In this document: positions 426-18,247 of the stretch, piece after piece
How the letters are laid out: each line of letters begins with the position of its first letter
How positions within the stretch are numbered: the first letter of the stretch is position 1
Source of the DNA: Kofleriaceae bacterium
Lineage (GTDB): Bacteria; Myxococcota_A; Polyangia; Haliangiales; Haliangiaceae
DNA length: 21,150 nucleotides
NCBI GenBank assembly: GCA_046597055.1
Contig: JBKJLC010000210.1
Location: 1-21,150 of the forward strand
Direction: 5' to 3'
Notes under the pieces: generated by a model
The model's input: only the letters and a program-made list of their open reading frames with translations
The model's database searches: none
What the model was told of the DNA's origin: nothing
Made by a program: the position numbers and the translations under genes

Positions 426-3395
426 ATGAGGGATCCACGACCGAAGGTTGTGATCGTCGGGAACGGGATGGTGAGCGTGCGGCTGGTCGAGGCGGTGCAC
501 ACGCGGGCGCCCGGCCGGTTCGAGGTGGTCGTGCTCGGCGAGGAGCCCCGGCCGGCGTACGACCGGGTCCGGCTGTCGAGCTACTTCGAGACCCGCGATC
601 CGGCTGCGCTGTCCCTGGGCGACGCCGGCTGGTACCGCGACCACGGCGCGACGCTGCGCGCCGGCGAGCGGGTCACCGGGCTCGACCCGGCGGCCGCGCT
701 GGTGACCACCGCCACCGGCGATACCGTCAGCTTCGACCGGCTGGTGCTCGCGACCGGCTCGGCACCGTGGCTGCCGCCGATCCCCGGGGTCGAGCTCCCT
801 GGCGTGTTCGTGTTCCGGACGATCGACGATCTCGACGCGATGATCGGCTGGGCCGACCGGCTGCGCGCGACCCCGGCCGCCGGCAAGCCGCGGTGCGCGG
901 TGCTCGGAGGCGGGCTGCTCGGGCTTGAGGCGGCCCGCGCTGCGCTCGATCTGGGCCTCGAGGTCCACGTGTTCGAGCTGGCCGACCGGCTGATGCCGCG
1001 CCAGCTCGACGCCGCCGGCAGCCGCCTGCTCGAAGCCGCGATCACGCAGCTCGGCATCACGATCCACCTGGGCCGGGCCCCGAGCGCGCTGGTCGGCGGC
1101 GGCGCGGTCGCCGGCCTCCGGGTCGGCGCCGACGAGCTGCCGTTCGCGATGGTGATCGTGTCGGCCGGCATCCGTCCGCGCGACGAGCTGGCCCGGGCCG
1201 CCGGGCTGGCGGTCGGGCCGCGCGGCGGCGTGGTCGTCGACGACGCGCTGGCCACCAGTGATCCCCGCATCGCCGCGATCGGCGAGGTCGCGCTGCACCG
1301 GGGCCGGCTGTACGGGCTGGTCGCGCCCGGCCAGGCCATGGCCGACGTGGTCGCGCGCCAGCTGGCCGGCGAGGACGCGCGCTGGACCGGCGCCGACGAC
1401 GCGGCCAAGCTCAAGCTGCTCGGCGTCGACGTCGCCAGCTTCGGCGACCCGTTCGCGGGCGACGGCGCCGCCCCCGACGCGCGCGCGCTGATGTTCCACG
1501 ACCTCCAGCGCGGCGTGTACCAGAAGCTGGTGGTCTCGGCCGACGGCCAGCGCCTGCTCGGCGGCGTGCTGGTCGGCGATGCCTCGCGCTGGGCCGAGCT
1601 GTCGGGGCTGGCCCGCTCGGCCGCGCCGCTGGCGCTGGCCCCGCACGAGCTGCTGATGGGCCGGGCCAGCAGCGGCGCCGCCGCGCTCGCCGACGACGCC
1701 CAGGTGTGCGCGTGCAACGGGGTCGACGCCGGTGGCGTCCGCACCGCGATCCGCGCCGGCAAGCTGGGCAGCCTCGACGACATCAAGCGCACGACCCGCG
1801 CCGGCACCGGGTGTGGCGGCTGCGGGCCCGAGCTGGGCCGCCTGCTCGCCGCCGAGCTGACCGCGCGCGGCGAGGTGGTCCGCCGCCGCATCTGCGAGCA
1901 CTTCGACTACACCCGCCAGGAGCTGTACGCGATCGCGTCGACCCTCGACCTGCGCGACTTCGACGCGCTGCTGGCGGCGCGCGGCACCGGCCACGGCTGC
2001 GAGGTCTGCAAGCCGCTGGCGGCCTCGATCTTCGCCAGCCTGCGGCCCGACGTGATCCTCGATCGCAACCCGACCATCCAGGACACCAACGACAAGTTCC
2101 TCGCCAACCTGCAGCGACGCGGGCTGTACTCGGTGGTGCCGCGGGTGCCCGGCGGCGAGCTCACGCCCGACCAGCTGATCACGCTCGGCGAGCTGGCCCG
2201 TCGCCACGGCCTCTACACCAAGATCACCGGCGGCCAGCGCATCGACATGTTCGGGGCCCGGGTCGACCAGCTGCCCGACATCTGGGAGGCGCTGGTCGCG
2301 GCCGGCTTCGAGAGCGGCCACGCGTACGGCAAGGCGTTGCGCACGGTCAAGAGCTGCGTCGGCTCGAGCTGGTGCCGGTTCGGCGTGCAGGACTCGGTCG
2401 GCCTCGCGATCCGGATCGAGCATCGCTACAAGGGCATCCGCGCGCCCCACAAGCTGAAGAGCGGCGTGTCGGGCTGCATCCGCGAGTGTGCCGAAGCCCA
2501 GGGCAAGGACTTCGGCATCATCGCCACCGAGCGCGGCTACAACCTGTACGTCGGCGGCAACGGCGGCACCCGCCCGCGCCACGCCGAGCTGCTGGCGACC
2601 GACCTCGACGAGCCGGCGCTGATCCGGCTGATCGATCGCTTCTTGGTCTACTACATCCGCACCGCCGATCAGCTGACCCGCACCTCGGTGTGGATCGAGA
2701 AGCTCGAGGGCGGCCTCGACCACCTGCGCGCCGTGATCGTGCACGACAGCCTCGGGATCGGGGCCGAGCTCGAGCGCCACATGCAGCGGCTGGTCGATGG
2801 CTACCAGTGCGAGTGGGCCGCGGTGGTGAGCGATCCGGTCAAGCGCGCCCGCTTCCGCGCGTTCGCCAACAGCGACGCGCCCGACGACGGCATCACCTGG
2901 GTCCAGGAGCGCGGCCAGGCCAGGCCGGCTGACTGGCCCAAGCCGGCGCCGCCGGCGCTGGTGCCGGCCCCGACCCGACGGGTCCGGACGCCGGACCCCG
3001 CCGCGCACTGGACCGACGTCGGGCGCGTGGCCGATCTCCCGATCGACGGCGGGGTCGCGATCCGCCACGGCCAGGTCCAGCTCGCGCTGTTTCGTCATCG
3101 CGACGGCGAGGTCTACGCGACCCAGAACATGTGTCCGCACAAGCAGGACCAGCTGCTCGCCCGCGGGCTGCTCGGCGATCGCGCCGGCGAGCCCAAGATC
3201 GCCTGCCCCCAGCACAAGCACAGCTTCTCGCTGCGCACCGGGGCATGCCTGACCTCGGCCGACCTGCCGCCGCTCCGCACGTTCCCGGTCCGGATCGAGG
3301 CGGGCCGCGTGCTGGCCCACCTGCCCCCGCCGGCCGCGCTCGCCGAGCTGTGCCCCACCCAGGCCGCGTGCGCGGCGCACGCCGTGGCGATGTGA
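426..3395 (+). CDS. nirB: NAD(P)H-dependent siroheme nitrite reductase, NirB large subunit fused to a C-terminal NirD Rieske domain
   Basis: FAD motif IVGNGMV; NAD motif VLGGGLLGLE; BFD-like [2Fe-2S] Cys motifs (CACNGV...GCGGC; CEHF...GCEVC); siroheme/[4Fe-4S] ligands CVGSSWC and GCIREC; after a Pro-rich linker, a Rieske motif CPH...CPQH. Confidence 0.96.
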   Translation: MRDPRPKVVIVGNGMVSVRLVEAVHTRAPGRFEVVVLGEEPRPAYDRVRLSSYFETRDPAALSLGDAGWYRDHGATLRAGERVTGLDPAAALVTTATGDTVSFDRLVLATGSAPWLPPIPGVELPGVFVFRTIDDLDAMIGWADRLRATPAAGKPRCAVLGGGLLGLEAARAALDLGLEVHVFELADRLMPRQLDAAGSRLLEAAITQLGITIHLGRAPSALVGGGAVAGLRVGADELPFAMVIVSAGIRPRDELARAAGLAVGPRGGVVVDDALATSDPRIAAIGEVALHRGRLYGLVAPGQAMADVVARQLAGEDARWTGADDAAKLKLLGVDVASFGDPFAGDGAAPDARALMFHDLQRGVYQKLVVSADGQRLLGGVLVGDASRWAELSGLARSAAPLALAPHELLMGRASSGAAALADDAQVCACNGVDAGGVRTAIRAGKLGSLDDIKRTTRAGTGCGGCGPELGRLLAAELTARGEVVRRRICEHFDYTRQELYAIASTLDLRDFDALLAARGTGHGCEVCKPLAASIFASLRPDVILDRNPTIQDTNDKFLANLQRRGLYSVVPRVPGGELTPDQLITLGELARRHGLYTKITGGQRIDMFGARVDQLPDIWEALVAAGFESGHAYGKALRTVKSCVGSSWCRFGVQDSVGLAIRIEHRYKGIRAPHKLKSGVSGCIRECAEAQGKDFGIIATERGYNLYVGGNGGTRPRHAELLATDLDEPALIRLIDRFLVYYIRTADQLTRTSVWIEKLEGGLDHLRAVIVHDSLGIGAELERHMQRLVDGYQCEWAAVVSDPVKRARFRAFANSDAPDDGITWVQERGQARPADWPKPAPPALVPAPTRRVRTPDPAAHWTDVGRVADLPIDGGVAIRHGQVQLALFRHRDGEVYATQNMCPHKQDQLLARGLLGDRAGEPKIACPQHKHSFSLRTGACLTSADLPPLRTFPVRIEAGRVLAHLPPPAALAELCPTQAACAAHAVAM

Positions 3396-3399
3396 CCGC

Positions 3400-5022
3400 A
3401 TGACCACGACCACCCGCACCATCCGCCTGCCGGTGATCAGCGCCGCCACCGCGGCCGCCGCGCCCCGCCACGGCTTGCTCGAGCGGCTGCTCGAGGAGCA
3501 GCAGGAGCTCACCGCGGTCGACCGCTTCGTCCAGCGCCACACCGGCGCCACGCCGCTGCTCGAGCCGATCTACCGCGCGCGCCTGCCCGCGACCCCGCCG
3601 GCGCCCGGCCAGCAGTACGCGTTCGAGGTCGACCTCGACGCTTGCAGCGGCTGCAAGGCGTGCGTCACCGCCTGCCACCGGCTCAACGGCCTCGACCCCG
3701 GCGAGACCTGGCGCGCGGTCGGCGTGCTGCACGGCGGCGACGCCGCCGCGCCGGTGCTCAAGACCGTGACCGCGGCCTGTCACCACTGCGTCGACCCGGC
3801 CTGCATGCGCGGCTGCCCGGTCGCGGCCTACGAGAAAGATCCCCGCACCGGCATCGTCCGCCACCTCGACGATCAGTGCATCGGCTGCCGCTACTGCACG
3901 CTGACGTGCCCGTACGAGGTGCCGCAGTACAGCGCCAAGCTCGGCATCGTGCGCAAGTGCGACATGTGCAGCAGCCGGCTGTCGGCCGGCGAGGCGCCAG
4001 CGTGCGTGCAGGCGTGCCCGTCGGGCGCGATCGCGATCCGGATCGTCGACGTCGCCCGCGCGATCGAGGACGCCCAGGGCGACGCGTTCCTGCCCGGCGC
4101 GCCGTCGCCGGCGATCACGGTGCCGACCACGATCTACCGCAGCGCCCAGGTGCTGCCGAAGAACCTGTTGCCGGCCGACTTCTACGCGGTGCGGCCGGCC
4201 CACGCGCACGCGCCGCTGGTCGTGATGCTGGTGCTGACCCAGCTCGCGGTCGGCACGCTGGTGGTCGATCGGCTGCTGGCCGCGCTGGCGCCGGTCGCGG
4301 CGGCCCCGCTCGCGCCGATCGCGGCCACGCTCGCGCTGGTGGCCGCGCTGGTCGCGCTGGCCGCCAGCACGCTGCACCTCGGCCGGCCCTGGTACGCGTT
4401 CCGTGCGCTGCTCGGCGTGCGGACCTCGTGGGTCAGCCGCGAGATCCTCGCGTTCGGAGGGTTCGCGCTGGCGGCCAGCGCGCACGCGCTCGCGTCGGCG
4501 CGGGTCCCGGCGCTCGGTGCCGCCGCGGTCGCGCTCGGCATCGCCGGCATCGGCGCGTCGGTGATGCTGTACGCGGTCACCCACCGGGCCTGGTGGGGGC
4601 TGGGCCGGACCCTGGCCCGGTTCGCCGGCACCGCGCTCGTGCTCGGCGTGGCCGCGCTGCTGGTGGTGGCCTCCGCGCTCGGCGCCGACGCGCTGGCCGC
4701 CGACCTGGCGCTGGCGCTACCGATCCTGCTCGCGGGCAAGCTCGCCATCGAGCTCGCGGTCCTCGTCCACCTGCGCGACCACGTCCACGGCGAGCTGAAG
4801 CGCACCGCGCTGCTGCTGACCACCCGGCTCCGTGGGCTGATGTGGGCGCGGGTCGCCGCCGCCGTGATCGGCGCGATCGGGGCGCCGCTCGTCCTCGCGG
4901 GCGATCTGTCGGTGGCGGCCGCCGCGGTCGCGTTCGTCGCGATCCTGGCCGGCGAGGTGCTCGAGCGGATCGGCTTCTTCGCCGCGGCCAGCCCGCCCCG
5001 CATGCCGGGGACGTTCCAGTGA
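3400..5022 (+). CDS. Fused 4x[4Fe-4S] ferredoxin (DmsB/NrfC-like) and DmsC/YnfH-family membrane anchor
   Basis: 16 Cys in four groups ([41 protein letters not shown]...CVQACP), followed by about 8 hydrophobic segments with the DmsC/NrfD-type motif STLHLGRP...SWVSREI. Confidence 0.92.
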
Positions 5023-7238
5023 GCCGGCGCTCGCTGGGCGCGCGCGCCCTCGACCTGATGCTTGCCCGCGAGGGCAAGCTGACCGACCGGCTCGAGCGGG
5101 TGCCGGGCGGCTTCGGCCTCGGCCAGGTCCCGCGCGCGCTGGCGCCCGACGGGACCACGACGCTGGTGTGCGGCTACTGCTCGACCGGGTGCGGCCTGAG
5201 CGTGCACCTGCAGAACGGGCGCGCAGTCAACCTGTCCCCGGCGGCCGACTATCCGGTCAACCGCGGCCTGGCGTGTCCGAAGGGCTGGGAGGCGCTGGCG
5301 CCGCTCACCGCCCCCGATCGCGGCACCACGCCGCTGGTGCGCACCGGCCACGGCGGGCTCGCGCCGGTGACCTGGCCGGCCGCGCTCGACCGCTTCGTCC
5401 ACGGCGTGCGCGCGATCCAGGAGGCCCACGGCCCGCAGGCGATGGCGTTCCTCGGCACCGGCCAGGCCCCGATCGAGGAGCAGGCGTTCCTGGGCGCGCT
5501 CGCCAAGTTCGGCATGGGCATGGTCCACGGCGATGCCAACACCCGGCAGTGCATGGCGACCGCGGTGGTCGCCTACAAGGAGTGCTTCGGCTTCGACGCG
5601 CCGCCGTACACGTACGGCGATCTCGAGGCGTCGGACGCGCTGATCTTCGTCGGCGCCAACCCGTGCATCGCCCACCCGATCCTGTGGGAGCGCGTGGTCC
5701 GCAACCCGCGCAACCCCGATATCGTCGTGATCGACCCGCGCCGCACCGAGACCGCGCAGGCCGCGACCCGCCACCTCGCGATCCGCCCCGGCGGTGACCT
5801 GGTGCTGCTGTACGCGGTCGCCCACGTGCTGATCCGCGAGGGCTGGCTCGATCGGGCCTTCATCGACGAGCACACCAGCGGCTTCGCCGAGTTTGCCGCC
5901 CACGTCGCCGGGTTTCCGCCGGCGCGCGCCGCCCTCACCTGCGGGCTCGAGCCGGCCGAGATCGAGGCGCTGGCCCGGCTGATCCACGCGCGGCCGCGGG
6001 TGTCGTTCTGGTGGACGATGGGGGTCAACCAGAGCCACCAGGGCGTGCGGACCGCGCAGGCGATCATCGCGCTCGCGCTCATGACCGGCAACATCGGGCG
6101 GCCCGGCACCGGCGCCAACTCGATCACCGGGCAGTGCAACGCGATGGGCTCGCGGCTGTTCAGCAACACGACCAACCTGATCGGCGGCCACCGGTTCGAC
6201 GACGCCGACCACCGGACCAAGGTCGCCGGCGTGCTCGGCCTCGACGAGGCCTGCCTCCCGACCCAGCCCGGCTGGGCCTACGACCAGATCCTCGAGGGCA
6301 TCGCGCGCGGCGACATCCGCGGGCTGTGGATCGTCGCGACCAACACCGCGCACTCGTGGATCAACCAGCGCGACGCGCGCGAGCTGCTCGGTCGGCTCGA
6401 GCTGCTGGTGGTCCAGGATCTGTTCCCGACCACCGAGACCGCGCAGCTCGCCCACGTGTACCTGCCGGCCGCCGGCTGGGGCGAGAAGGACGGCGTGTTC
6501 ATCAACAGCGAGCGCCGGCTCGGCGTGATCAAGCAGGTGTCACCGGCGCCGGGCCAGGCGCTGTCCGACTTCCGGATCTTCCAGCTGATCGCCGACGCGT
6601 GGGGCTGCGGCGAGCAGTTCGCGCGCTGGCGGTCGCCGGAGGCGGTGTTCGGCCTGCTGAAGGAGCTGACCCGCGGGCAGCCGTGCGATCTCACCGGCGT
6701 CGGCGGCTACCGCGAGCTCGACGCCGACGGCGGCGTACAGTGGCCGGTGCGCGCGGGCACCGTGGTGCCGGCCGGGGCCGAGCGCCGCCTGTTCGAGGAC
6801 GGCCAGTTCTTCACGCCCGATCGCCGCGCCCGCTTCATCGCCGGCGAGCCCCGGCCGCTGCCCGAGCCGGCGCGCGGGGCCTACCCGTTCACGCTGCTGA
6901 CCGGCCGCGGCAGCGCCAGCCAGTGGCACACCGAGACTCGCACCGGCACCTCGGCGGTCCTGCGCAAGCTGGCGTCGCCCGGTCACGTCGAGCTGCACCC
7001 CGAGGACGCCAGCGCCCTCGGGGTCGGCCCGACCGACTGGGTGCGAGTCTCGTCGCGACGCGGCGCGGTCGAGCTGCGCGCCTTTGTGACCCGCGGGGTC
7101 GCGCGCGGCTGCGTCTTCATCTCGATGCACCTGGCGGTCACCAACGTGCTCACCTTCCCCGCATTCGACCCGTCGTCGCGCCAGCCCGCGTACAAGGCGT
7201 GCGCGGTCGCGGTCGCGCGGATCGACGCGCCCCGCTGA
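5019..7238 (+). CDS. nasA: Mo-bisPGD nitrate reductase catalytic subunit (NasA/NarB-like), 739 aa
   Basis: GTG start overlapping the upstream stop (GTGA 5019-5022), in frame with the 3642..7238 ORF; [4Fe-4S] motif CGYCSTGC...CPKG; Mo-ligand region [49 protein letters not shown]. Confidence 0.9.
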
Positions 7239-7249
7239 TCGTCTTGCTG

Positions 7250-7443
7250 TTCCGGTGGCCCGGCGCCGAGCGCCGTCTCGAAGAACTCGACGGCGGGCTC
7301 GCGTGCGCTCGCCCTGGCTCAGGGCCACCGGGAAGATGTGTGGGAGCCCGAGGGCAGAGCGCCAAGGTGCCCACGTGATCTTCGACGGGCTGCCCTTCGA
7401 CGGCGGGCTCGCGTGCGCCCGCCCTGGCTCAGGGCCACCGGAA
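7250..7443. mobile_element. MITE/BIME-like non-autonomous element (~194 bp) with terminal inverted repeats and flanking direct repeat
   Basis: TTCCGGTGGCCC (7250-7261) is the exact reverse complement of GGGCCACCGGAA (7432-7443); CTTGCTG abuts both ends (7243-7249 and 7444-7450); internal 45-nt direct repeats at 7287-7331 and 7397-7441 differ by 1 base. Confidence 0.6.
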
Positions 7444-7553
7444 CTTGCTGGATCCCCAGGGCGCCCTCCAGCCGGACGCCATCATCGTTCGACACCGAGC
7501 TCGCGCAGGTTCGGATCGGGACGTCGGGAGCCGGTCGGTCGCGCGGGGTGCGG

Positions 7554-8447
7554 TCAGCGCACGGGCGCGGCCGGCGTCCACAGCAGCGCGCGCACCGGCG
7601 TGATCGCGTGGGCGCCGCGCGGCGGGCTCGCCATCTGCTGCAGATCGAGGCGCTCGGGCTCGACGGTGGCGATGACGAGCTGGCGGCGGCTCGCGCCGAG
7701 GCGACCGCCGAGCGCGGCGTACGAGACCGGCGCGCGCCAGCCGGGCAGCCCGGTCACCGCGCCGGTGACGTCGGTGACGACGGCAGCGTCGAGGCCGCGG
7801 ACCAGCTGGACCAGCCCCGGGTTCGGCAGCGAACCGGCCCCGAGCACCAGCGCGAGCGAGCCCGCCTGCGCGCGCGGCGCGACCACCAGGTCGGCTTCCT
7901 TGTAGTCCTTCACCGCGGCCACCGCGCCCAGCACGTCGGCCTTGGTCACCGTGCCTGCGAAGAACCGCGCGGTCTTGACCTCGCCGCCGAGGACCACGTT
8001 GTCGACGAAGTCGAGGTCGCGACAGCCGGTGGCCGCGAACGCGATCTTGCGGCCGCGCATGGTCTGGATCGAGGTCGACTCGCGACCGAACACGCCCCAG
8101 TCGCGGCTGGTGCCGCCGTCGATCACGGCGGTGGCCAGCACCGGCCCTGGTGCGCGCGCGGCGATGCACAGGCCATCGATGATCGCGAAGTCGGCCCTGC
8201 TCGCCGTGAGGTCGCTGTAGCGCGCGTAGGCCCGGGCCAGGGTCTTGATGCCGGTGCGGGCCTCGATCGCATCCGCGACGGTCTGGGCGAAGGCGAGCCG
8301 CTCGCTGGCCTGGCCGAAACCGAGGGTCGGGGCGTGGATCGCGACGGTGAGATGGGACGGTCGCTCGGCCTGGACCGGCGCGGGGTCGGCCGCGAGCGCG
8401 ACCCACGCGGCGAGCGCGACGACGGTGGTGGAGGTGGTGGCATGCAT
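7554..8447 (-). CDS. Exported PhnD/SsuA-like (type 2 periplasmic binding fold) substrate-binding protein
   Basis: Signal-like N-terminus ending PVQA; segments typical of PhnD-like proteins (IEARTGI, ADFAIID, MRGRKIAF, VLGAVAAVKDYKEADL); starts 3 nt after the TPR gene stop. Confidence 0.65.
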   Translation of the reverse strand: MHATTSTTVVALAAWVALAADPAPVQAERPSHLTVAIHAPTLGFGQASERLAFAQTVADAIEARTGIKTLARAYARYSDLTASRADFAIIDGLCIAARAPGPVLATAVIDGGTSRDWGVFGRESTSIQTMRGRKIAFAATGCRDLDFVDNVVLGGEVKTARFFAGTVTKADVLGAVAAVKDYKEADLVVAPRAQAGSLALVLGAGSLPNPGLVQLVRGLDAAVVTDVTGAVTGLPGWRAPVSYAALGGRLGASRRQLVIATVEPERLDLQQMASPPRGAHAITPVRALLWTPAAPVR

Positions 8448-8450
8448 GGC

Positions 8451-10970
8451 TCAGCTCCCCGGCGCGATCCCGAACACGCGCTCGATCGATTGCATCCAGC
8501 TCACCACCGCCGGGCTGCCGACGCCGGCAGCCCGGGCGCGCTTCCACAGCTCGTAGGCGTCGAGGGTGCGGCCCTCGCGGTGGGCGATCACGCCGAGGTT
8601 GACGAGTGACTCGGGAGGCTGGCCGTCGAGCCGCTCGAGCGCCGGCCGCGCGCTCTCGGGCGTGGTCCAGGCCGAGAGCACGATCAGGTTGTGGTCGAGC
8701 CGGGGGTCGCGGCCCGGCGCCCCCGCCGCGCGCGCGGCCTCGAGCGCCCGCCGGGCCCCGCCCGGGTTGCCGCCATCGAGCTCGCCGGCCGCGACCAGCT
8801 GGTGGCACGAGCGAAGCAACTCGCGGGCACGCTGCTGGACCGCGCCGCGCGAACGCCCGACCAGCCGCTCGAGCTGCTTGATCGCCTGCCTGCGCGCGGT
8901 GCGACCGTCCTCGAGGTAGTAGGAGTAGGCGAGGAACAGGTCGAGGCCGAAGCGATCCCACGGCGCCGCCAGCCACGGCAGCGGCCGGTCGCCCAGCTCC
9001 TTGGCCAGCCGCTCGAGGCGGGTGCGGCCGTCGCGGATGCGGCCGCCTGCGATCGCGGCGGCGCCTTGCCCGAACCCCAGCACCCGCTGCTCGTCGGCCG
9101 AGAGCTGCGCGGTCGCGGCCGCCGCCTTGTCGAGATCGGCCGAGGCCTCGTTGACGCGGCCCGCGCCGAGGCGGGCCAGGCCGCGCCGCAGCAAGGCGAG
9201 CGCGCGGTTGCGCGCCAGCGCGTCGGACGTGCCGCCCGCCTTGGCGGCCCGGTCGAGCGCGGCGAACGCCTCGTCGAGCCGCCCGCTCTCGATCATCACC
9301 CCGGCGAGGTCGATGCCGGCGGCCGCGGCCACCGCCGGATCGCCACCGCGCTCCGCCAGCGTCAGCGCCTGCTCGAGCGAGGTCGCGGCCTCGGCGGTCG
9401 CGCCGGCGGCCAGCCGCACGCGCCCGTGCAGCCACCGCACCCGCGGCTCGTCGGGCGCCGCGGCCAGCGCGCGCTCGACCGCGGCGGCCGCGCCCGGATC
9501 ACGGGCCTCGAGCAGGAGCGCGCCGCGGTTGTAGTGAGTCATCGCGGACGCGGCATCGAGCGCGACCGCCTCGTCGAGCGTCGCGCGCGCGGCCGCGACG
9601 TCGCCGGCCGCGACCTCCGCGGTGGCGCGCAGGTTGAGCAGCCCGACCGCGCCGGCGATCGCATCGCGATTGCTGGCATTGGCCGCGAGGGCATCGCGAT
9701 AGCGCGTCAGCGCCTGCGCCGGCGGGCGGCCGCCGCGCTCGAGCGCACGAGCCGCGATCACCAGCAGGCGGGCGCGGACCTTCGGCGCGATCCCGGCGCG
9801 GGCGGCGCCGCCCTCGGCGAGCGCGACCGCGTCGTCGAAGCGGCCGGCCTCGACCTGGGCTCCGGCCAGCTCGGCGACCAGCTCGACGTCGTCGGGGTAG
9901 GCGCGCTGGGCGCGGCCGAGTTCCGCGATCGCCAGCTCGAGATCGGGCGGCCGCCGCCGCAGCGCCAGGCGGCCCCGGCGCAGCCCGACCTCGGGCGTCT
10001 CGCCACGCGCGCGCGCGCGCTGGTACGACGCCTCGGCGGCATCGGGCTCGCCGGCCGCGAGGTGGACGTCGCCGCGCAGCAGCCAGCCGCGGGGCGCCCT
10101 GGGCCGTAGCTCGAGGTAGCGCTCGGCGGCGGCCGCGGCCGCCGGGTGACGACCGAGGCCGAGCAGCGCGACGCCGTGGTTGTAGTGGAGCGCGGCGTCG
10201 GCGGTGCCGCCGCTCTGCGCGATCGCGAGCGCGCAGGCCGTCACCGCCTCGGCGTGGCGGCGCAGCCCGGTGAGCGCGCCGCAGCGCGCGTTGCGCACGG
10301 CGCGACGGGGTCCGGCGCTCAGCGGGCCGGCCGCCAGCGTGACCAGCTGGCGATCCGCCGCGGCGAAGTCGCGCGCGCTGGAGGGCGCGCCACTGGCGGC
10401 GCGGAACAGGTACGCGTAGGCGAGCTTGAGCCTGATCGTACTGTCGGCGGCGGCGAGCGTGGCCGGCCGGGTCGTGAGGAACGCCTGGTAGGCCGCGATC
10501 GCCCGGCCGGCCTGGGCCGGATCGACGAAGGCGCGATCGCCGATCAAGAGATGCAGCGCGTACGCGCGCGGCACCGAGGCGATCACCTGCTCGGCCAGCT
10601 CGACCGCCTCGCGATCGCGCCCGGCACCGCCGAGCAGGACCGCCTTCTTCTCGAGGATCAGCACGTCGCCGGGGCGATGGGTCGCCGCGGTGCCGTCGAT
10701 CCAGCGCAGGCCGCCGGCGAAGTCCCGGCGCAGCGTGAACACGTCAGCGCGCTTGGCGTAGTACGTGGGATCGATGCTGCGCGGCTCGGCGGCGATCGCG
10801 CCATCGTAGAGCGCCGCGGCGTGGCCGTAGTCGCCACGGCCGAACGCCTCGTCGGCCTCGTCGAGGAGCTTCTGCACACCCGCGCTCTGCGCGACGGCCT
10901 CGGATGCGTGCGCGAGCACGAGCACGGACGCGCACGCGAGCGCGATGGACCAAGAACATCGAATCACCAT
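8451..10970 (-). CDS. Secreted multi-TPR protein, 839 aa
   Basis: ATG at 10970 with GGGGGA Shine-Dalgarno; signal peptide MVIRCSWSIALACASVLVLAHASEAVA; many TPR-like units (LHYNHGVALLGLG, WLLRGDVHLAAG, THYNRGALLL, SLVNLGVIAHREG). The upstream part of the 1534-aa ORF is a shadow of the TonB gene. Confidence 0.88.
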   Translation of the reverse strand: MVIRCSWSIALACASVLVLAHASEAVAQSAGVQKLLDEADEAFGRGDYGHAAALYDGAIAAEPRSIDPTYYAKRADVFTLRRDFAGGLRWIDGTAATHRPGDVLILEKKAVLLGGAGRDREAVELAEQVIASVPRAYALHLLIGDRAFVDPAQAGRAIAAYQAFLTTRPATLAAADSTIRLKLAYAYLFRAASGAPSSARDFAAADRQLVTLAAGPLSAGPRRAVRNARCGALTGLRRHAEAVTACALAIAQSGGTADAALHYNHGVALLGLGRHPAAAAAAERYLELRPRAPRGWLLRGDVHLAAGEPDAAEASYQRARARGETPEVGLRRGRLALRRRPPDLELAIAELGRAQRAYPDDVELVAELAGAQVEAGRFDDAVALAEGGAARAGIAPKVRARLLVIAARALERGGRPPAQALTRYRDALAANASNRDAIAGAVGLLNLRATAEVAAGDVAAARATLDEAVALDAASAMTHYNRGALLLEARDPGAAAAVERALAAAPDEPRVRWLHGRVRLAAGATAEAATSLEQALTLAERGGDPAVAAAAGIDLAGVMIESGRLDEAFAALDRAAKAGGTSDALARNRALALLRRGLARLGAGRVNEASADLDKAAAATAQLSADEQRVLGFGQGAAAIAGGRIRDGRTRLERLAKELGDRPLPWLAAPWDRFGLDLFLAYSYYLEDGRTARRQAIKQLERLVGRSRGAVQQRARELLRSCHQLVAAGELDGGNPGGARRALEAARAAGAPGRDPRLDHNLIVLSAWTTPESARPALERLDGQPPESLVNLGVIAHREGRTLDAYELWKRARAAGVGSPAVVSWMQSIERVFGIAPGS

Positions 10971-10992
10971 GCGTTCCCCCCGAGCGGCGCGC

Positions 10993-11022
10993 TTGACGAG
11001 CCGGACACTACCACCGTAGCGT
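10993..11022 (+). promoter_or_regulatory. sigma70-type promoter for the TonB-dependent receptor, overlapping a divergent extended -10 for the TPR gene
   Basis: TTGACG (10993-10998), 18-nt spacer, TAGCGT (11017-11022), 8 nt before ATG 11031; on the minus strand TGgTAGTGT at 11005-11013. Confidence 0.55.
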
Positions 11023-11030
11023 TCATCTCG

Positions 11031-13121
11031 ATGAGGGGACCGACGGGAGTCGTTCGTCTCGGGGTCGCGACCGCGTTGGCGGCCAGCACGGGAATCGTCC
11101 GTGCCCAGGGCGTGCCGCCGGAGGTCGAGATCCCGAGCTACACCGACGCCATCAACAAGACGACCGACGACGACGATGGAGGCGACGACGCTCCGGGCTC
11201 GCTCGCGCTCGACGACGTCATCCGCACCTCGGTGTACTCGGTGTCGCGCAAGCCGCAGCTGGTCCGCGAGTCGCCGGGCGTCGTCACCGTGGTCACCCGC
11301 GAGGAGATCCTCGCGACCGGTGCCCGCGATCTCAACGACGTCCTGATGCTGGTGCCCAGCATCAGCTTCGCCGTCGACGTGCAGGGCGTGGTCGGCATCG
11401 GCTTCCGCGGCAACTGGGCCGCCGAGGGCAAGGTGCTGTTCCTGGTCGACGGCCTCGAGCTCAACGAACGCCTGTACTCGGGCGTCGAGTGGAGCAACCA
11501 CATCCCGGTCGATCACATCGAGCGCATCGAGGTGATCCGAGGCCCGGGCTCGTCGATCTACGGTGGCTACGCCGAGATGGCGGTGATCAACATCGTGACC
11601 CGCACCGGCAAGGAGCTGCGGGGCGCGTCGGCCTCGGTCGCGTTCGGGCGCTTCGTCGGTGGCAGCGGCGCGGTGGCCCGGTCCAACCTCGGGATCGAGC
11701 TTGGGGATCACCGGGACGGGGTGACCTGGTCGGTGTCGGGCCTGCTCGGCCGGGGCAGCCGCAGCGATCTCGCGTACGCACCGCCGCCGCCGCCACCGGG
11801 CGAGCCGGGCGTCCCCGCGTTCTCGCTCGAGGACAGCGCTCGCCTCGATCCCACGTACCTGGCCGGCAGCATCAGCTGGCGCGGCCTGACCGTGCGCGGG
11901 CTCTACGACGGGTTCCACAGCACCAACCGCGACGGGTTCGGCGTCGCGAGCCCGGCGGCGAACGACCTCGACTTTACCGGCTACTTCGCCGACCTGCAGT
12001 ACGAGCGGCGGGTGTCCAACCGGCTGACGATCACGCCGCGGCTGAGCTACAAGCGGCAGCTGCCCTGGCGCGACGGCGACGTCGCGTCCGACTACCACTA
12101 CGACAAGACCGCCGAGCGTATCCTCGGCAGCGTGACCGCGTCGTGGGATCCCCGCGACGATCTCAACGTGCTCGCCGGCGCCGAGGGCTTCCGCGATCAG
12201 GCCAAGCTCAACAGCGACCAGCTGGTCGGGTTGCAGTCGGCGTTCGGCGAGGACGGCGCGACCTCCATCTCGTACGTCAACGTCGCCGGGTTCGCGCAGG
12301 GCACGCTCAGCCACCGCCTGGCCAACCTGACCGTCGGGTCCCGGGTCGAGAACCACAGCCAGTTCGGCCTGTCGTTCGTGCCCCGGATCGGCCTCACCCG
12401 GGTCGCCGGCCGGTTCCACGTCAAGCTGCTCGCCGCGCGCGCCTTCCGCGCCCCCGCGATCGAGAATATCAACACCAACCCGATGCTGACGCCCGAGCGC
12501 ACCACGGTGCTCGAGGTCGAGACCGGCTATCAGCTCGCCGACAACGCGCTGGTCAGCATCAACCTGTTCGACATCACGATCGGCGATCCGATCGTCTTCA
12601 CCGTGGAGGGCGAGGACGAGGCGTACCTCAACCAGGACCAGGCCGGCAGCCGCGGCGGCGAGGTCGACCTCAAGGTGCGCGGCAGCCGCGGCTTCGTGGT
12701 CGCCAGCGCGTCGGCCTACACCGCGCAGGGAAAAAACCGGGTCGATCTGTACGAGGTGCCCGGCGAGCAGCATGCCGTGCTCGGCCTGCCGGTGCTCAAG
12801 CTGACCGGCGCCGCCTCGCTCGCGATCTGGCGCGGCCTGAGCGTGGGCCCGTCGCTGGTGGTCATGAGCCGCCGCTACGGCGTCGAGCCCGACGACCTGG
12901 AGACCCTCCAGGTCGTCTCGCAAGCGCCGGCGCTGCTGGTGAACGGGTTCGTGCGCTACGCCGATCTCGGCGTGAAGGGCCTCGAGCTCGGCGTCGGCGT
13001 CTACAACGCGCTCAACGTGGACTACCGGTTCGTGCAGCCATATGCCGGCGGTCATCCGTCGCTGCCGGCGCCGTCGCGTGAGCTGTTCGCGCGGCTCGGC
13101 TTCGAGATGGGCTTCCGCTGA
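11031..13121 (+). CDS. TonB-dependent outer-membrane receptor, 696 aa
   Basis: Signal peptide MRGPTGVVRLGVATALAASTGIVRA; plug domain (SVSRKPQLVRESPGVVTVVTREEI, LFLVDG, IERIEVIRGPGSSIYG); barrel motifs AFRAP, LTPE and GVYNALN; amphipathic C-terminal strand. Confidence 0.93.
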   Translation: MRGPTGVVRLGVATALAASTGIVRAQGVPPEVEIPSYTDAINKTTDDDDGGDDAPGSLALDDVIRTSVYSVSRKPQLVRESPGVVTVVTREEILATGARDLNDVLMLVPSISFAVDVQGVVGIGFRGNWAAEGKVLFLVDGLELNERLYSGVEWSNHIPVDHIERIEVIRGPGSSIYGGYAEMAVINIVTRTGKELRGASASVAFGRFVGGSGAVARSNLGIELGDHRDGVTWSVSGLLGRGSRSDLAYAPPPPPPGEPGVPAFSLEDSARLDPTYLAGSISWRGLTVRGLYDGFHSTNRDGFGVASPAANDLDFTGYFADLQYERRVSNRLTITPRLSYKRQLPWRDGDVASDYHYDKTAERILGSVTASWDPRDDLNVLAGAEGFRDQAKLNSDQLVGLQSAFGEDGATSISYVNVAGFAQGTLSHRLANLTVGSRVENHSQFGLSFVPRIGLTRVAGRFHVKLLAARAFRAPAIENINTNPMLTPERTTVLEVETGYQLADNALVSINLFDITIGDPIVFTVEGEDEAYLNQDQAGSRGGEVDLKVRGSRGFVVASASAYTAQGKNRVDLYEVPGEQHAVLGLPVLKLTGAASLAIWRGLSVGPSLVVMSRRYGVEPDDLETLQVVSQAPALLVNGFVRYADLGVKGLELGVGVYNALNVDYRFVQPYAGGHPSLPAPSRELFARLGFEMGFR

Positions 13122-13143: not shown

Positions 13144-13650
13144 TCAGCGCAGGGGCGCGGCGTGGTCGGTCTCGGACGGCACGTTCCGGCGCGGCTCGTT
13201 CTCCATCAGCTCCATGAACATCGTGGCCATGTCGCCACCGAGGCCATCCAGCTCGTCCTTGCTCAGCAGCTTGCGCACCTTGGGGAAGAGCTCGCCCTCC
13301 TCCTCCTCGCGGGCGTGGTGCTCGACCTGCTCCTTCATGACCGAGAGCTTGGCGTCGAACTCCTCGTCCTCGACCTTGAGCTCCATCAGGTCGGCGAGCA
13401 CGCGCTTGACCGACAGGTGCTCCTCGACCGACTCGAGCAAGAGATCCTGGGTCGGCTTGGCCATCACGGCCGGGTAGAACAGTTTCTCCTCGATCGTCGC
13501 GTGGGCAGCCAGACAGTCGGCCAGCTTGATGAAGAGCTGTGACTTCGCGGCAGGGTCCTCCGCCGCTTCGATCTGGGTGAACAGCTCGTCGACCTCGTCG
13601 TGCTGCTCGGTCAGTAGCTCCAGGGCGTCCATCGCATCGCCATTTTTCAT
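13144..13650 (-). CDS. Hemerythrin/HHE cation-binding domain protein (alternative start 13632)
   Basis: MDALELLTEQHDEV, AHATIEEKLFYPA, EEH, HHAREEEGELFP: His/Glu di-iron ligand pattern. Confidence 0.92.
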   Translation of the reverse strand: MKNGDAMDALELLTEQHDEVDELFTQIEAAEDPAAKSQLFIKLADCLAAHATIEEKLFYPAVMAKPTQDLLLESVEEHLSVKRVLADLMELKVEDEEFDAKLSVMKEQVEHHAREEEEGELFPKVRKLLSKDELDGLGGDMATMFMELMENEPRRNVPSETDHAAPLR

Positions 13651-13662
13651 ACCAGATAGCAA

Positions 13663-13679
13663 TGCACTGCCCGTACCAG
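13663..13679 (-). promoter_or_regulatory. sigma54 (-24/-12) promoter candidate for the hemerythrin gene
   Basis: Minus strand CTGGTACGGGCAGTGCA against consensus TGGCACG-N4-TTGCW: exact GG-N10-GC spacing, 2 mismatches, in a relatively AT-rich intergenic region. Confidence 0.6.
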
Positions 13680-13827
13680 CGCGTGTCCAGAAATTCCGGC
13701 TACATCTGCATGCCCTACCGTTGACCACACGCGCGGTGTGGCAGGGCTCCACGCCGTGCGCGGTGGTGGCGTCGATTTTTGGTGAGCTATCGTGCCGGGC
13801 CGCGCGGTCGGTCGCTCGCTCTGACCC

Positions 13828-15078
13828 ATGAACCTGCTGCGCCGCCATCCTGCCTTTCGCCGCCTGTGGGCGGCCGGCGCGATCTCGCTGGTCGGCGACT
13901 GGCTCAGCTTCGTCGCGGTCAGCGTGCTGGCGCTGACCTCGGGCGGTGGCGCGCTCGGCCTCGCGCTGGTGTTCTCGGCCCACCTGCTGCCGGGCGCGCT
14001 GCTCGCGCCGTTCGCGGGCGCGCTGGTCGATCGCTTCGATCGGCGCAAGGTGCTGGTGCTCGCCGATCTGATCGCGGGCGGGCTCACCGCCGCGATGGCG
14101 CTGGCCGCGGCCGCCGGCTGGCTGGCGGTGGTCCAGTTGCTCCTGCTCGCGCGCAGCGCGGTCAGCGCGATCGTGCCGCCCGGCGAGTCGGCGGCGGTGC
14201 GCCGGCTGGTGCCGCTCGAAGATCTGGTGCCGGCCAACGCGATCCTCGCCGCCACCTGGAGCGTCGCCTACGTCGCGGGCATGGCGCTCGGCGGGGCCGC
14301 CGCCCTGCTGGGGCCGACCCTCGCGCTGCTGCTCGATGCGGTGTCGTTCCTGGTCGCCGCCGCGGTGCACGCGACCTTGCCGCCGATCCCGGTCGCGGCC
14401 GACCGCCACGCCCGCGTGCTCGACATCGTGCGCGCGACCCCGCGCGACACCGTGTTCGCGGTGCGCTTCGCCGCCGGCCACCGGCCGTTGCTGGCCGCGG
14501 TGCTCGGCAAGATGCCGCTCGGGATGGCCGGCGGCGCGGCCTGGATCGCGCTCAACCTGATCGGCGCCTCGGCCCAGCCGTTCGGCGCGGCCGCCCTGTC
14601 CTTCGGCGTGCTCCAGGCCGTGCGCGGCGCCGGCACCGGCATCGGCCCGGCGGTCGCGACCTGGCTGGCGCGGCGGGGGGTGCGCGAAGCGACCCTGCAG
14701 AACGCCGCGCGGGTGACGATGTTCGCCGCGGTCGCCGCGCTGGCGCTCGCCCGCGATCCGCTCGGCCTGTGCGCGTGCGCGCTGGTCTGGGGCATCGGCA
14801 CCGGCACCAACTGGGTGATGTCGCACGCGGCGATCCAGCGCCACGCCAACGACGCGGTGATCGGTCGCCTGGCGGCGTTCGACGAGCTGCTGGTGACCGG
14901 GGCGATGGTCGCGAGCGCGCTGACCGGCGCGGTGATCGCCGACGCCAGCGGCCCCAGCGCCGCGGCGCTGACCGGGGTCGGGCTCGGCATCGCCGCGTTG
15001 ACCGTGGCCGCCCTGATCGCGCGCCGGGCGCCCCGGTCGCGCGTTGAGGCGCCATCAAGCGCTACAGTCGCGGCATGA
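13828..15078 (+). CDS. MFS transporter (DHA3/MFS_3, macrolide-efflux-like family)
   Basis: FRRLWAAGAISLVGDW N-terminus, motif A GALVDRFDRRKVL, about 12 hydrophobic segments. Confidence 0.9.
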   Translation: MNLLRRHPAFRRLWAAGAISLVGDWLSFVAVSVLALTSGGGALGLALVFSAHLLPGALLAPFAGALVDRFDRRKVLVLADLIAGGLTAAMALAAAAGWLAVVQLLLLARSAVSAIVPPGESAAVRRLVPLEDLVPANAILAATWSVAYVAGMALGGAAALLGPTLALLLDAVSFLVAAAVHATLPPIPVAADRHARVLDIVRATPRDTVFAVRFAAGHRPLLAAVLGKMPLGMAGGAAWIALNLIGASAQPFGAAALSFGVLQAVRGAGTGIGPAVATWLARRGVREATLQNAARVTMFAAVAALALARDPLGLCACALVWGIGTGTNWVMSHAAIQRHANDAVIGRLAAFDELLVTGAMVASALTGAVIADASGPSAAALTGVGLGIAALTVAALIARRAPRSRVEAPSSATVAA

Positions 15079-16496
15079 GCGGATCCGATGTCCTGGCTCG
15101 GCTGCGCGCGCTCGGCGACGACCTGATCTCGACCGCGCCCGACGACCTCGCCGCCTACGGACGTGACTGGACCAAGGTGTTCGCCCCGGCGCCGGTCGCG
15201 CTGGCCCGGCCCCGCTCGACCGCCGAGGTCGCGGCGGTGCTCCGCACCTGCAGCGAGGTCGGCCTCGCGGTGGTGCCGTCGGGCGGCCGCACCGGCCTGG
15301 CCGGCGGGGCGGTCGCGGCCCACGGCGAGCTGGTGCTGTCACTCGAGCGCATGCGCGCGATCGCGCCGGTCGATGTCCTGGGCGGCACCGTGCGCGCGCA
15401 GGCCGGCGCGGTCACCGCCGCGGTCCACGCCCACTGCGAGCCCCACGGGCTGACCTGGCCGGTCGACTTCGCGTCGAAGGGCTCGAGCCACATCGGCGGC
15501 AACATCGCCACCAACGCCGGCGGCGTGAAGGTGATCCGCTACGGGCTGACCCGCAACTGGGTGCTCGGCCTCGAGGTCGTGCTGATCGACGGCACCGTGC
15601 TCGAGCTCGGCGGCGCCCTCGAGAAGGACAACACCGGCATCGATCTGCGCCAGCTGTTCATCGGCTCCGAGGGCATCCTCGGCGTGATCACCGCGGCGAC
15701 GCTCAAGCTGGCGCCGCTGCCGCGCAACCTCGACGTGATGATCTTCGCGGTCGATGGTCTGCCCGGCGTGCTGCGGCTGTTCCGCGAGGTCCGCCAGAGC
15801 GGGCTGACCCTGGCCGCGTTCGAGTTCTTCACCCAGCGCTGCCTCGACCGGCTGCTGCGCCACCGCGATCTCCGCGCGCCGTTCGACCGGCCCGCCGACC
15901 ACTACGTGCTGATCGAGGTCGAGGACGCCGCCGACGACGCGCTCGAGGCGTGGGTGGCCGGCGTGTTCGAGCACGAGCTCGCGGTCGACGGCGTCCACGC
16001 CCAGGGTCCGCGCCAGGCCGCCGAGCTGTGGACCCTGCGCGAGGGCATCAGCGAGAGCCTGTCGGCGACCGGGCTGCCGCACAAGAACGACATCTCGCTG
16101 CCGGTCGCCGCGCTCGAGGCCTTCTGCAGCGAGCTCGACGCCGTGCTCGCCGCCGGCTACCCGGGCTGGGAGCTGTGCCTGTTCGGGCACATCGGCGATG
16201 GCAACCTGCACGTCAACATCATGAAGCCCGACGACCTCGACCCCGCCGAGTTCCGGCGCCGCACCAAGGAGGCCGACCACGATCTGTTCCGACTCGTGCA
16301 GCGCCACGCCGGCAGCATCTCGGCCGAGCACGGCATCGGCCTGCTGAAGCGCGACTATCTCGGCTACCGGCGGTCGCCCGACGAGCTTCGGCTGATGGCC
16401 GCCCTCAAGCAGGTGTTCGATCCACGCGGGCTGCTGAATCCGGGCAAGGTGCTGCCGGCGGCGGCGCCGGGGGATGCTGGGCGCCGCGGGGGCTGA
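15075..16496 (+). CDS. FAD-linked 2-hydroxyacid dehydrogenase (VAO/PCMH family), likely D-2-hydroxyglutarate dehydrogenase
   Basis: PSGGRTGLAGG, IGGNIATNAGG, FIGSEGILGVIT, KNDISLP, FGHIGDGNLH, SAEHGIG, DPRGLLNPGK; adjacent to serA. Confidence 0.85.
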   Translation: MSGSDVLARLRALGDDLISTAPDDLAAYGRDWTKVFAPAPVALARPRSTAEVAAVLRTCSEVGLAVVPSGGRTGLAGGAVAAHGELVLSLERMRAIAPVDVLGGTVRAQAGAVTAAVHAHCEPHGLTWPVDFASKGSSHIGGNIATNAGGVKVIRYGLTRNWVLGLEVVLIDGTVLELGGALEKDNTGIDLRQLFIGSEGILGVITAATLKLAPLPRNLDVMIFAVDGLPGVLRLFREVRQSGLTLAAFEFFTQRCLDRLLRHRDLRAPFDRPADHYVLIEVEDAADDALEAWVAGVFEHELAVDGVHAQGPRQAAELWTLREGISESLSATGLPHKNDISLPVAALEAFCSELDAVLAAGYPGWELCLFGHIGDGNLHVNIMKPDDLDPAEFRRRTKEADHDLFRLVQRHAGSISAEHGIGLLKRDYLGYRRSPDELRLMAALKQVFDPRGLLNPGKVLPAAAPGDAGRRGG

Positions 16497-16597
16497 CGCC
16501 CGGCCGGGCCGGATGCTGGCGGTGGTGCGGGCGGATCAGGGATGACCGCGTACGGACGCACCGGCAAGCTCGCGCGCGGGACGACCGGGGGCGACCG

Positions 16598-17839
16598 TCA
16601 CTCCGGTGCGTAGAGCATGCGGGTCTTGATGCTGGTCTCGAGGGCCGTGACCGCCTTCTTCACCTCGTGCGAGACCGCCTGGTCGAGGTCCATCACGAGG
16701 TACCCGATGCTGGGATCGGTGCCGAGGATCTGCGCGTGGATGTTGGCGCCGACGTCCGAGATGATCCGCGTGATGTCGCGGATCACGCCGGGCACGTTGC
16801 GATGCACGTTGAGGATGCGGTGGGTGCTGCGGGCCTGGATCAGCTCGAGCTGGGGGAAGTTGACCGCACCGGTGGTGGCCCCGGTGTTGACGAACTTCAC
16901 GAGCGAGTTGGCGACCTCGCGGCCGATCGCAGCCTGGGCCTCCTCGGTCGAGCCGCCGATGTGCGGGGTGAGGACCACGTTGGGCAGGTTGCGCAGCACC
17001 GAGGCGAAGCCGTCGGAGTTGGCCTCGGGCTCCTCGGGATAGACGTCGATCGCGGCGCCGCCGACGTGGCCGATCGAGATCGCGGCGGCCAGGGCGTCGA
17101 GGTCGACCACGGTGCCGCGGCTGGCGTTCAGGAGGCAGCCGCCCGGCCTCATGCGCGCCAGCTGGTCGGCGCCGATCATGCCGCGGGTCTGCGGGGTCTC
17201 GGGCACGTGGAGCGTGACGAAGTCCGACGAGCCCAGCAGCTCGTCGAGGGTCGCCACCGGGTGGTTGTTGCCCATCGGCAGCCGCGAGCCGACGTCGTAG
17301 AACATGACCTGCATGCCGACCATCTCGGCGAGCACGCCGACCTGGCGGCCAATGTGGCCGTAGCCGACGATGCCCAAGGTCTTGTTGCGGATCTCGTGAC
17401 AGCCGACCGCGACCTTCTTCCAGGTGCCGGTGTGGACCTCGCGCGAGCGGTCGAACAGCTGGCGCGACAGGATGATCACCTCGGCGATCACCATCTCGGC
17501 GACCGAGCGCGTGTTCGAGAACGGCGCGTTGAACACCGGCGCGCCCCGGCGGTTGGCGTGGGCGAGATCGATCTGGTTGGTGCCGATGCAGAACGCGCCG
17601 ACCGCGAGCAGCCGGCGGGCCTCGTCGAGGGCGGGACCGGTGACCTGGGTCTTCGACCGGATGCCCAGGATGTGGACGTCGCGGATGCGCTGGGCCAGCT
17701 CGGCCTCCTTGAGCGCGCCCTTCACTCGCTCGACCTGGAACCCCTCGGCGCCGAAGATCTCGTCGGCGCTCGGGTGCACGTTCTCGAGGAGAAGGACCTT
17801 GATGTCCCCCTTGGGAAATGACGTCACGGGGAGGGTCAC
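16598..17839 (-). CDS. serA: D-3-phosphoglycerate dehydrogenase, E. coli-like type with C-terminal ACT domain
   Basis: LLLENVHP, GIRSKT, FCIGTNQ, NAPFSNTRSVAE, GIVGYGHIG, NASRG, PHIGGSTEEAQ; ACT domain with HRNVPG and GANI; GTG start. Confidence 0.96.
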   Translation of the reverse strand: MTLPVTSFPKGDIKVLLLENVHPSADEIFGAEGFQVERVKGALKEAELAQRIRDVHILGIRSKTQVTGPALDEARRLLAVGAFCIGTNQIDLAHANRRGAPVFNAPFSNTRSVAEMVIAEVIILSRQLFDRSREVHTGTWKKVAVGCHEIRNKTLGIVGYGHIGRQVGVLAEMVGMQVMFYDVGSRLPMGNNHPVATLDELLGSSDFVTLHVPETPQTRGMIGADQLARMRPGGCLLNASRGTVVDLDALAAAISIGHVGGAAIDVYPEEPEANSDGFASVLRNLPNVVLTPHIGGSTEEAQAAIGREVANSLVKFVNTGATTGAVNFPQLELIQARSTHRILNVHRNVPGVIRDITRIISDVGANIHAQILGTDPSIGYLVMDLDQAVSHEVKKAVTALETSIKTRMLYAPE

Positions 17840-17884
17840 GCCGGCACGCTAGCGCATCCGCCCCGCACTGCGGCGATGAAGACG

Positions 17885-18139: not shown

Positions 18140-18247
18140 GGACCGCCACGGTACCAGCTCGGCGCCGGGACCCGCCGGCGGTTCTTCGGCGCAAGCTGGC
18201 GCAAGCCGGCAAGCGCCCGCGTCACGCCCACCCGCCGCTGGCGCCGA

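Follow-up and report, generated by a model that had tools for sequence, protein, structure and literature searches.

E. coli DmsABC and YnfFGH and Thermus PsrABC have a four-cluster iron-sulfur (FeS) B subunit and a heme-free, eight-helix anchor, PsrB and PsrC being parts of a menaquinone-bound polysulfide reductase. In respiratory NarGHI, a quinol:nitrate oxidoreductase that faces the cytoplasm and has a four-cluster wire, NarG is Asp-ligated at molybdenum (Mo) and NarI is a di-heme cytochrome, with quinol oxidised at the outer face. The classical assimilatory (Nas) enzymes NasA, NasC and NarB are cytoplasmic, Cys-ligated Mo enzymes encoded beside nirBD and nitrate transporters; the accessible text of PMC13381448 has them take electrons from ferredoxin or NAD(P)H rather than from quinol, and contrasts enzymes of the NC type with quinol users. 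The PC/PD/NC/ND scheme, as summarised in the same text, lists no nitrate reductase that is Cys-ligated, cytoplasm-side and quinol-coupled, and in the accessible part of PMC7331816 no member of the Nas/Nap/Aio/Fdh clade is said to have four-cluster or anchor subunits. SoeABC of Allochromatium and Aquifex is hypothesised to have N-side orientation and an inverted DmsC-like anchor with His65 and Glu87, as described in PMC8076601. Here we analyse a window (the whole 21,150-nucleotide stretch of contig JBKJLC010000210.1, assembly GCA_046597055.1, from a Kofleriaceae bacterium) in which a nirBD gene is followed by a module of two genes, one for a fused FeS and membrane-anchor protein and one for a Mo subunit. 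The module breaks both of the rules set out in these reviews. It is a real and widespread variation on the plan of the complex iron-sulfur molybdoenzymes, and its function, as predicted from sequence, would be that of a menaquinol-fed, cytoplasm-facing nitrate reductase serving assimilation, a reading to which we give a probability of roughly 65%. No description of the module was found in the literature covered, subscription papers and supplements lying outside that coverage.

The operon consists of three genes on the same (+) strand that span 426-7238, and its features are as follows.

426-3395, + strand: fused NirB-NirD, an NADH nitrite reductase (FAD, BFD, siroheme and Rieske; from Pfam and NCBIfam)
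3400-5022, + strand: fusion of a DmsB-type 4x[4Fe-4S] wire with a predicted inverted, DmsC-type, eight-helix quinol anchor, 540 amino acids
3613-4050, + strand: four-cluster FeS domain of the fusion, residues 72-217, with 16 invariant Cys plus P140 and Y165
4210-4983, + strand: membrane anchor of the fusion, residues 271-528 (from alignment to E. coli DmsC/YnfH and from fold)
4375-4377, + strand: H326, equivalent by alignment to DmsC His65
4441-4443, + strand: E348, equivalent by alignment to DmsC Glu87
4966-4968, + strand: R523, equivalent by alignment to DmsC Arg271
5019-5022, + strand: GTGA overlap of the TGA stop of the fusion gene with the GTG start of the Mo gene (from sequence and translation)
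5019-7238, + strand: putative nitrate reductase catalytic subunit with Mo-bis-pyranopterin guanine dinucleotide, 739 amino acids, GTG start
5058-5162, + strand: N-terminal arm conserved among Mo subunits, R.G.LT..L...PG.FGLG.VP, distinct from a signal peptide

The first gene is a single fused open reading frame (ORF) of 989 amino acids that scores 927 bits against TIGR02374 (cut-off 578) and 97 bits against TIGR02378 (cut-off 75), and its end lies 4 nucleotides from the start of the fusion gene. The GTGA overlap suggests that the fusion gene and the Mo gene are translationally coupled. The original prediction, which had been made from the letters of the window, had reported this overlap, had placed the module downstream of nirBD and had described the Mo gene as free of a BFD domain and of a neighbouring diaphorase; all of this holds, with the refinement that nirBD is one fused ORF, and no separate diaphorase gene was seen beside the Mo gene among the ORFs and Pfam matches of the window.

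That one polypeptide carries four [4Fe-4S] motifs and a membrane anchor had also been claimed, and Pfam, the Cys count and an AlphaFold model agree with it. Pfam places Fer4_11 at residues 123-212 of the fusion and DmsC (PF04976) at 270-527 (37.3 bits, cut-off 22.3), the fusion holds exactly 16 Cys in DmsB spacing, every one of them invariant in 62/62 diverse homologues, and the model (pLDDT 91.2, pTM 0.88) contains eight long helices between residues 271 and 528 plus two short loop helices. The top NCBIfam match of the FeS domain is TIGR02951 DmsB at 132 bits, below the cut-off of 214, and its modelled fold resembles FdnH, ArrB and PsrB (TM 0.68 by target for PsrB), while the anchor fold compares with PsrC (2vpw_C) at TM 0.70 by target and E 3.4e-3, which is weak by E-value. 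The 16 invariant Cys and the fold thus identify a four-[4Fe-4S] transfer subunit of the complex iron-sulfur molybdoenzyme kind, and the PF04976 match above cut-off, H326/E348 and the eight long helices identify the corresponding NrfD/DmsC anchor with its quinol-site His and Glu. The fusion is not an assembly accident, because the 120 best homologues listed (508-602 amino acids) all have both Fer4 and DmsC Pfam matches. The anchor had been called "DmsC/NrfD-type", of which only the first half stands: a profile of the membrane part of the family scores E. coli YnfH at 84 and DmsC at 74 bits versus 21 for NrfD.

The residues H326, S343, E348 and R523 are invariant in the same 62/62 homologues. 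According to PMC8076601, replacement of DmsC His65 stops quinol oxidation and Glu87 is important for quinol binding, and section 8 of that paper proposes Arg271 as a proton gate. Loops on the FeS side of the anchor hold on average 14.4 Lys or Arg per sequence versus 2.7 on the other side, with the same bias in 62/62 homologues; the counts in the same register are 3 versus 8 in E. coli DmsC and 3 versus 10 in YnfH. By the positive-inside rule this excess means that the FeS domain and the quinol site should face the cytoplasm throughout the 62 homologues, and the anchor is, on its charge pattern, inverted relative to that of E. coli DmsC. The module therefore has in common with DmsABC, YnfFGH and PsrABC a four-cluster B subunit, a heme-free eight-helix anchor and equivalents of His65, Glu87 and Arg271, and differs from them in the fusion of B with C, in the predicted inversion of the anchor and in the lack of a twin-arginine translocation (Tat) signal. 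In place of the exported, periplasm-facing DmsA-type subunit of DmsABC proper (dmsA_ynfE scores 107 against a cut-off of 778) and of the corresponding subunit of PsrABC there is a Cys-ligated catalytic subunit of the Nas/Nap/Fdh clade. SoeABC comes close in its hypothesised orientation and anchor (PMC8076601) and is set apart, by its description, through having three subunits and by sulfite oxidation with quinone reduction. With NarGHI the module has the four-cluster wire in common and would share the orientation and the quinol:nitrate chemistry; unlike NarI, its anchor shows no heme pattern, and its quinol site would face inward.

The Mo subunit has Pfam matches to Molybdop_Fe4S4, Molybdopterin and Molydop_binding only, with no Fer2_BFD. 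Its ligands for the FS0 cluster are C51, C54, C58 and C86, and the Mo ligand is C178 (5550-5552), invariant in 52/52 Mo subunits and followed by M179, a Cys-Met motif which, together with M334, is as in NapA and other nitrate reductases. A Tat-like leader was found on 0/78 Mo partners, NapA and DmsA controls being positive, and the C-terminal tails are at most 15 residues long in 67/70. The lack of such a leader, together with the topology, the invariant quinol-site residues and the strict gene pairing described below, support the earlier proposal of a cytoplasm-facing, membrane-anchored enzyme apparently built for quinol. The N-terminal arm is missing from clostridial relatives, the clostridial alignment beginning at its Cys7, and is possibly a docking arm. 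The subunit falls below every curated NCBIfam cut-off (Fdh-alpha 483/666, NasA_Halo 472/1000, NasC 381/1100, NAPA 279/931), NarG is distant at 31.5 bits, and the top sequence match in the PDB is a formate dehydrogenase. The description of the Mo subunit as "NasA/NarB-like" had accordingly to be given up, as it reaches no Nas or Nap cut-off and groups with a clostridial nitrate reductase. Like classical Nas it is cytoplasmic, has no signal peptide and has Cys-ligated Mo; unlike classical Nas it lies on a separate branch, and the anchor fusion is adjacent in all close matches where Nas would have a soluble donor module and no membrane subunit. NapA, being Tat-bearing, periplasmic and of the Nap clade, is likewise a different enzyme. 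In Poribacteria (L101, L110 and L121:11626-14424) the Mo subunits are extended at the C-terminus by 195 residues, which include one Cys and give no Pfam match, and these three loci are flanked by ammonium transporter genes.

Homologues of the fusion are numerous. A search matched 7,783/8,000 scored candidates, many of the weaker of which may match the FeS domain alone, and 818 representatives at 50% clustering have E <= 1e-30; a genome scan gave at least 582 genome stretches with fusion relatives, and the locus counts that follow use the best 80 of these. The best 80 come from Myxococcota, Planctomycetota, Vicinamibacterales (Acidobacteriota), Entotheonella and Poribacteria, and the closest named loci among the matches listed are from Kofleriaceae and Myxococcales genomes (68-77% identity on the fusion). 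The fusion is patchy among relatives of the source genome, since strong matches were present in 10 of 40 (one at a contig end), including 7 of the 16 genomes of the same genus. The Mo gene follows the fusion in 78/80 loci; in the other two the contig ends after a further 253 and 48 bases. The reverse search, starting from the Mo subunit, matched 8/200 genomes of its own phylum and 14/201 around Adhaeretor (centre included), both at 57-67% identity, with the fusion upstream in 8/8 and 14/14, or 22/22 of the close Mo matches; no anchor was seen within 1.5 kb of the 21 weaker own-phylum Mo matches examined.

Fifty of the 80 loci have at least 6 kb on both sides of the module. By a gene panel 48 of these encode a nitrite reductase (NirB in 43/50), and since L067 has a siroheme reductase by Pfam, L055 alone is left without one; 31/50 have a nitrate transporter. 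The nitrite reductases beside the module are NirBD, NirA-Rieske with or without a FAD/NAD domain, or NirA with a CysJ-like neighbour, and the fusion-Mo pair persists through these swaps, its order being fixed while its position relative to nir varies. At L071:7086-9944, L096:6981-10019 and L104:7116-9962 a NirA-type siroheme reductase is fused with Rieske and FAD/NAD-binding domains, an architecture whose domain content would suffice by itself for NAD(P)H-dependent nitrite reduction. A uroporphyrinogen-III synthase (HemD) domain lies in one open frame with NirBD at L054:6260-9904, where a frameshift is possible, and an apparent NirBD-FeS-DmsC fusion at L050 was rejected as a frameshift inside nirD.

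A 39-row maximum likelihood tree (LG+G4), built from a hand-picked subset of 52 aligned rows plus 10 new rows, with cyanobacterial NarB and B. subtilis NasC outside its sampling, joins the Mo subunit group to a clostridial nitrate reductase group at 100/100. NasA, NapA, Fdh and a NasC-like branch all lie outside the joined group, and a quick 36-row tree agrees; the window's subunit is outside the proteobacterial NasA and NasC-like branches and only weakly near haloarchaeal NasA (82/69). It falls, therefore, among nitrate reductases and apart from Fdh. The clostridial connection is also visible in a search of plasmids, in which the best match to the Mo subunit is a Cetobacterium protein (592 bits; the 60 listed plasmid matches other than Cetobacterium are at <=425 bits and <=39.9% identity) whose gene is followed by those for a 135-residue FeS protein and a FAD oxidoreductase. 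Homologues of the Cetobacterium protein include Clostridium proteins named nitrate reductase, and that of C. perfringens is 43% identical to the window's Mo subunit (617 bits) and has unusual motifs in common with it (NTRx[36 protein letters not shown]). The nar genes of C. ljungdahlii (CLJU_c23710-30) are three with the same make-up, and PMC9124969 reports that their deletion abolishes nitrate reduction; the enzyme is there called cytosolic and fermentative and is described as dissimilatory, and its host has neither cytochromes nor ubiquinone genes.

The clostridial enzyme is of the same Mo clade, cytoplasmic and provided with an FeS partner, and differs in having a small FeS protein and an NADH flavoprotein, the latter absent from the window, in place of the anchor, and in lacking the N-terminal arm. 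Scanning metagenomes with the Cetobacterium protein yielded 79 loci, and 45 of these leave room on both sides: the 35 of clostridial type have the small FeS protein and flavoprotein in 33/35 and the anchor in 0/35, and the 10 of module type have the anchor in 10/10 and the flavoprotein in 0/10. This distinct clade of nitrate reductases is thus wired in two ways, of which the module is one. A deeper branch in five planctomycete genomes (40-42% identity) has the fusion in 5/5 and is sister to the window-type and clostridial groups together (98/97). A single clade of all anchored forms is rejected at p-AU 1e-5 (approximately unbiased test), for a group named post hoc and with several rows of odd composition. 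The simplest reading of the deeper anchored branch suggests that the anchor is ancestral and was later swapped for the FeS protein and flavoprotein in clostridia and fusobacteria; two separate gains of the anchor would be the less simple alternative. Two clostridial-type Mo genes (L261 and L288) have no anchor gene within 4 kb and no genes for the small FeS protein and flavoprotein either. The motif YNGRLCM marks a further, NasC-like Mo clade at L141, L148, L150 and L182, where the Mo gene has on one side a gene for a membrane protein of 350-380 residues and on the other a gene for a DmsB-like FeS protein, after which comes a small gene; these loci possibly encode another membrane-linked nitrate reductase.

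As we picture it, the two polypeptides would assemble, at the inner face of the cytoplasmic membrane, into a complex iron-sulfur molybdoenzyme with menaquinol:nitrate oxidoreductase activity. Menaquinol would give up its electrons at the H326/E348 site, which would face the cytoplasm, and these would reach FS0 and Mo by way of the four [4Fe-4S] clusters; nitrate would be reduced to nitrite in the cytoplasm, and the co-encoded NirBD would reduce nitrite with NADH to ammonium for biomass; NADH could also first pass through a respiratory dehydrogenase. The potential of menaquinol is about -75 mV. That of nitrate is +433 mV, as given in PMC10100899. Since both half-reactions would take place at the inner face and both protons would remain in the cytoplasm, the menaquinol:nitrate step is itself probably electroneutral, unless the anchor pumps. 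The source genome, which is 94% complete, has MenD.

The original prediction had left assimilation and ammonification side by side. Assimilation is favoured in the source genome by these observations: sigma-54-like sites (at least 9 of 11 positions) lie upstream on the sense strand of 21 of 66 distinct loci, versus 7 antisense and 2.0 in shuffles; a nitrate-type ABC cluster, nrtABCD, is present on contig C178 and adjoins the operon in relatives L039, L042 and L044; a Tat-bearing NapA (contig C165) and NrfA are encoded separately; and no further Nas-type gene was found among the genome's 7 molybdopterin matches. The role may differ between hosts, because in Sorangium there is, in addition, a NasC-like gene that has a diaphorase-like gene next to it; four other complete genomes showed no classical Nas. 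The NapA locus (G000:C165:16296-23391) has two flanking tetraheme cytochromes and, by inspection, a divergent NrfC/NrfD-like pair, without the usual napBC/GH set. Five loci (L039:13806-14741, L042:4749-5687, L044, L048 and L050) have, next to the operon and nrtABCD, a gene for a protein of about 300 residues with a signal-like N-terminus and no Pfam match at 1e-6, possibly an outer-membrane nitrate channel; a similar-looking gene is at L198:4427-5446.

Several points weigh against a quinol-fed assimilatory enzyme. Quinol feeding, the interface between the Mo (A) and FeS (B) parts and the role are all inferred, the physical complex from gene coupling and homology, and the equivalent of DmsC Ser62 is kept in just 41/62 homologues. 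Soluble electron input is possible because NirB is an NADH diaphorase in its own right, and the alternative nitrite reductases beside the module mostly have a flavin domain or a partner that uses NAD(P)H as well. The best 80 of at least 582 loci are kin, many of them Sorangium strains, so that the locus counts overstate independence; the window's own sigma-54 match is just 7 of 11. In Sorangium So0157-2 the second, NasC-like gene scores 825 bits, below cut-off. The studied sister enzyme, C. ljungdahlii nar, is described as dissimilatory (PMC9124969), and would belong to the clade by its gene layout and by way of the C. perfringens and Cetobacterium proteins.

The last of these points, the second system in Sorangium and the invariance of R523 at the position of the proposed proton gate would all suit the same quinol-fed complex if its main job were redox balancing or low-oxygen respiration, that is, nitrate ammonification with NirBD, perhaps electrogenic through an anchor proton channel. 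We consider this unlikely, given that no FNR boxes were found upstream of any of the 66 loci while sigma-54 sites are enriched, that the ATP-driven nrtABCD adjoins the operon in three relatives, that the source genome already has NapA and NrfA, and that ammonium transporters flank the Poribacteria loci. Alternatively the anchor might be only a scaffold or an overflow valve, with NADH electrons entering the FeS wire through NirB and the Rieske domain of its NirD part, for which the composite NasBGC system of Paracoccus is the model. The position of nirBD directly 5' of the fusion, the frequency of NirB among full-flank loci and the Rieske and FAD/NAD domains or CysJ-like neighbours of the replacement nitrite reductases speak for such a route, but the quinol-site residues are invariant, the Mo subunit has no BFD domain and almost always a short tail, nir moves while the fusion-to-Mo order does not, and the sole apparent NirBD-FeS-DmsC fusion is the frameshift at L050, all of which makes the route seem distinctly improbable to us. 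That the Mo enzyme acts on formate or on a sulfur or halogen oxyanion, or works oxidatively like SoeABC, would fit its top NCBIfam score (Fdh-alpha, below cut-off), its formate dehydrogenase match in the PDB and the precedent of SoeABC as an inverted-anchor enzyme that reduces quinone (PMC8076601). Yet C178 is followed by M179 and not arranged as selenocysteine/Cys-His, the tree position is among nitrate reductases, the C. perfringens nitrate reductase gives the same NCBIfam pattern and the neighbourhood consists consistently of nitrate and nitrite genes, and we hold another substrate to be very improbable indeed.

A bolder version of the quinol-fed reading, which we put forward tentatively and think rather unlikely, is that the module represents an undescribed Cys-ligated, cytoplasm-side, quinol-coupled class that is also the ancestor of the clostridial enzyme and conserves energy as protons cross the membrane by way of the inverted anchor; R523 would then be its invariant gate, and nitrate assimilation would also build proton motive force. 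If the menaquinol-fed assimilatory reading is true, many bacteria of soils, the sea and sponges couple their assimilation of nitrate to the respiratory chain, and surveys of the nitrogen cycle mis-bin genes that bear the annotation "formate dehydrogenase" or "DMSO reductase anchor". The module also provides an evolutionary context for the clostridial enzyme, about which little is understood, and a culturable test case for an inverted DmsC anchor.

Elsewhere in the window, a REP (repetitive extragenic palindromic)-like repeat occurs on both sides of the operon (164-187, 7287-7331 and 7397-7444), and its 16-base core has 122 copies in the genome. Downstream, 7554-8447 (- strand) encodes a substrate-binding-like protein with no Pfam match that is unrelated to the module, and the stretch 7554-13121 also holds a long TPR-like protein (- strand) and, by inspection, a divergent TonB-receptor-like ORF. 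The remainder, 13144-20476, has ordinary gene content: by inspection a small hemerythrin-like protein, and by Pfam an MFS transporter, a FAD-linked oxidase, a SerA-like dehydrogenase and a tail-specific protease.

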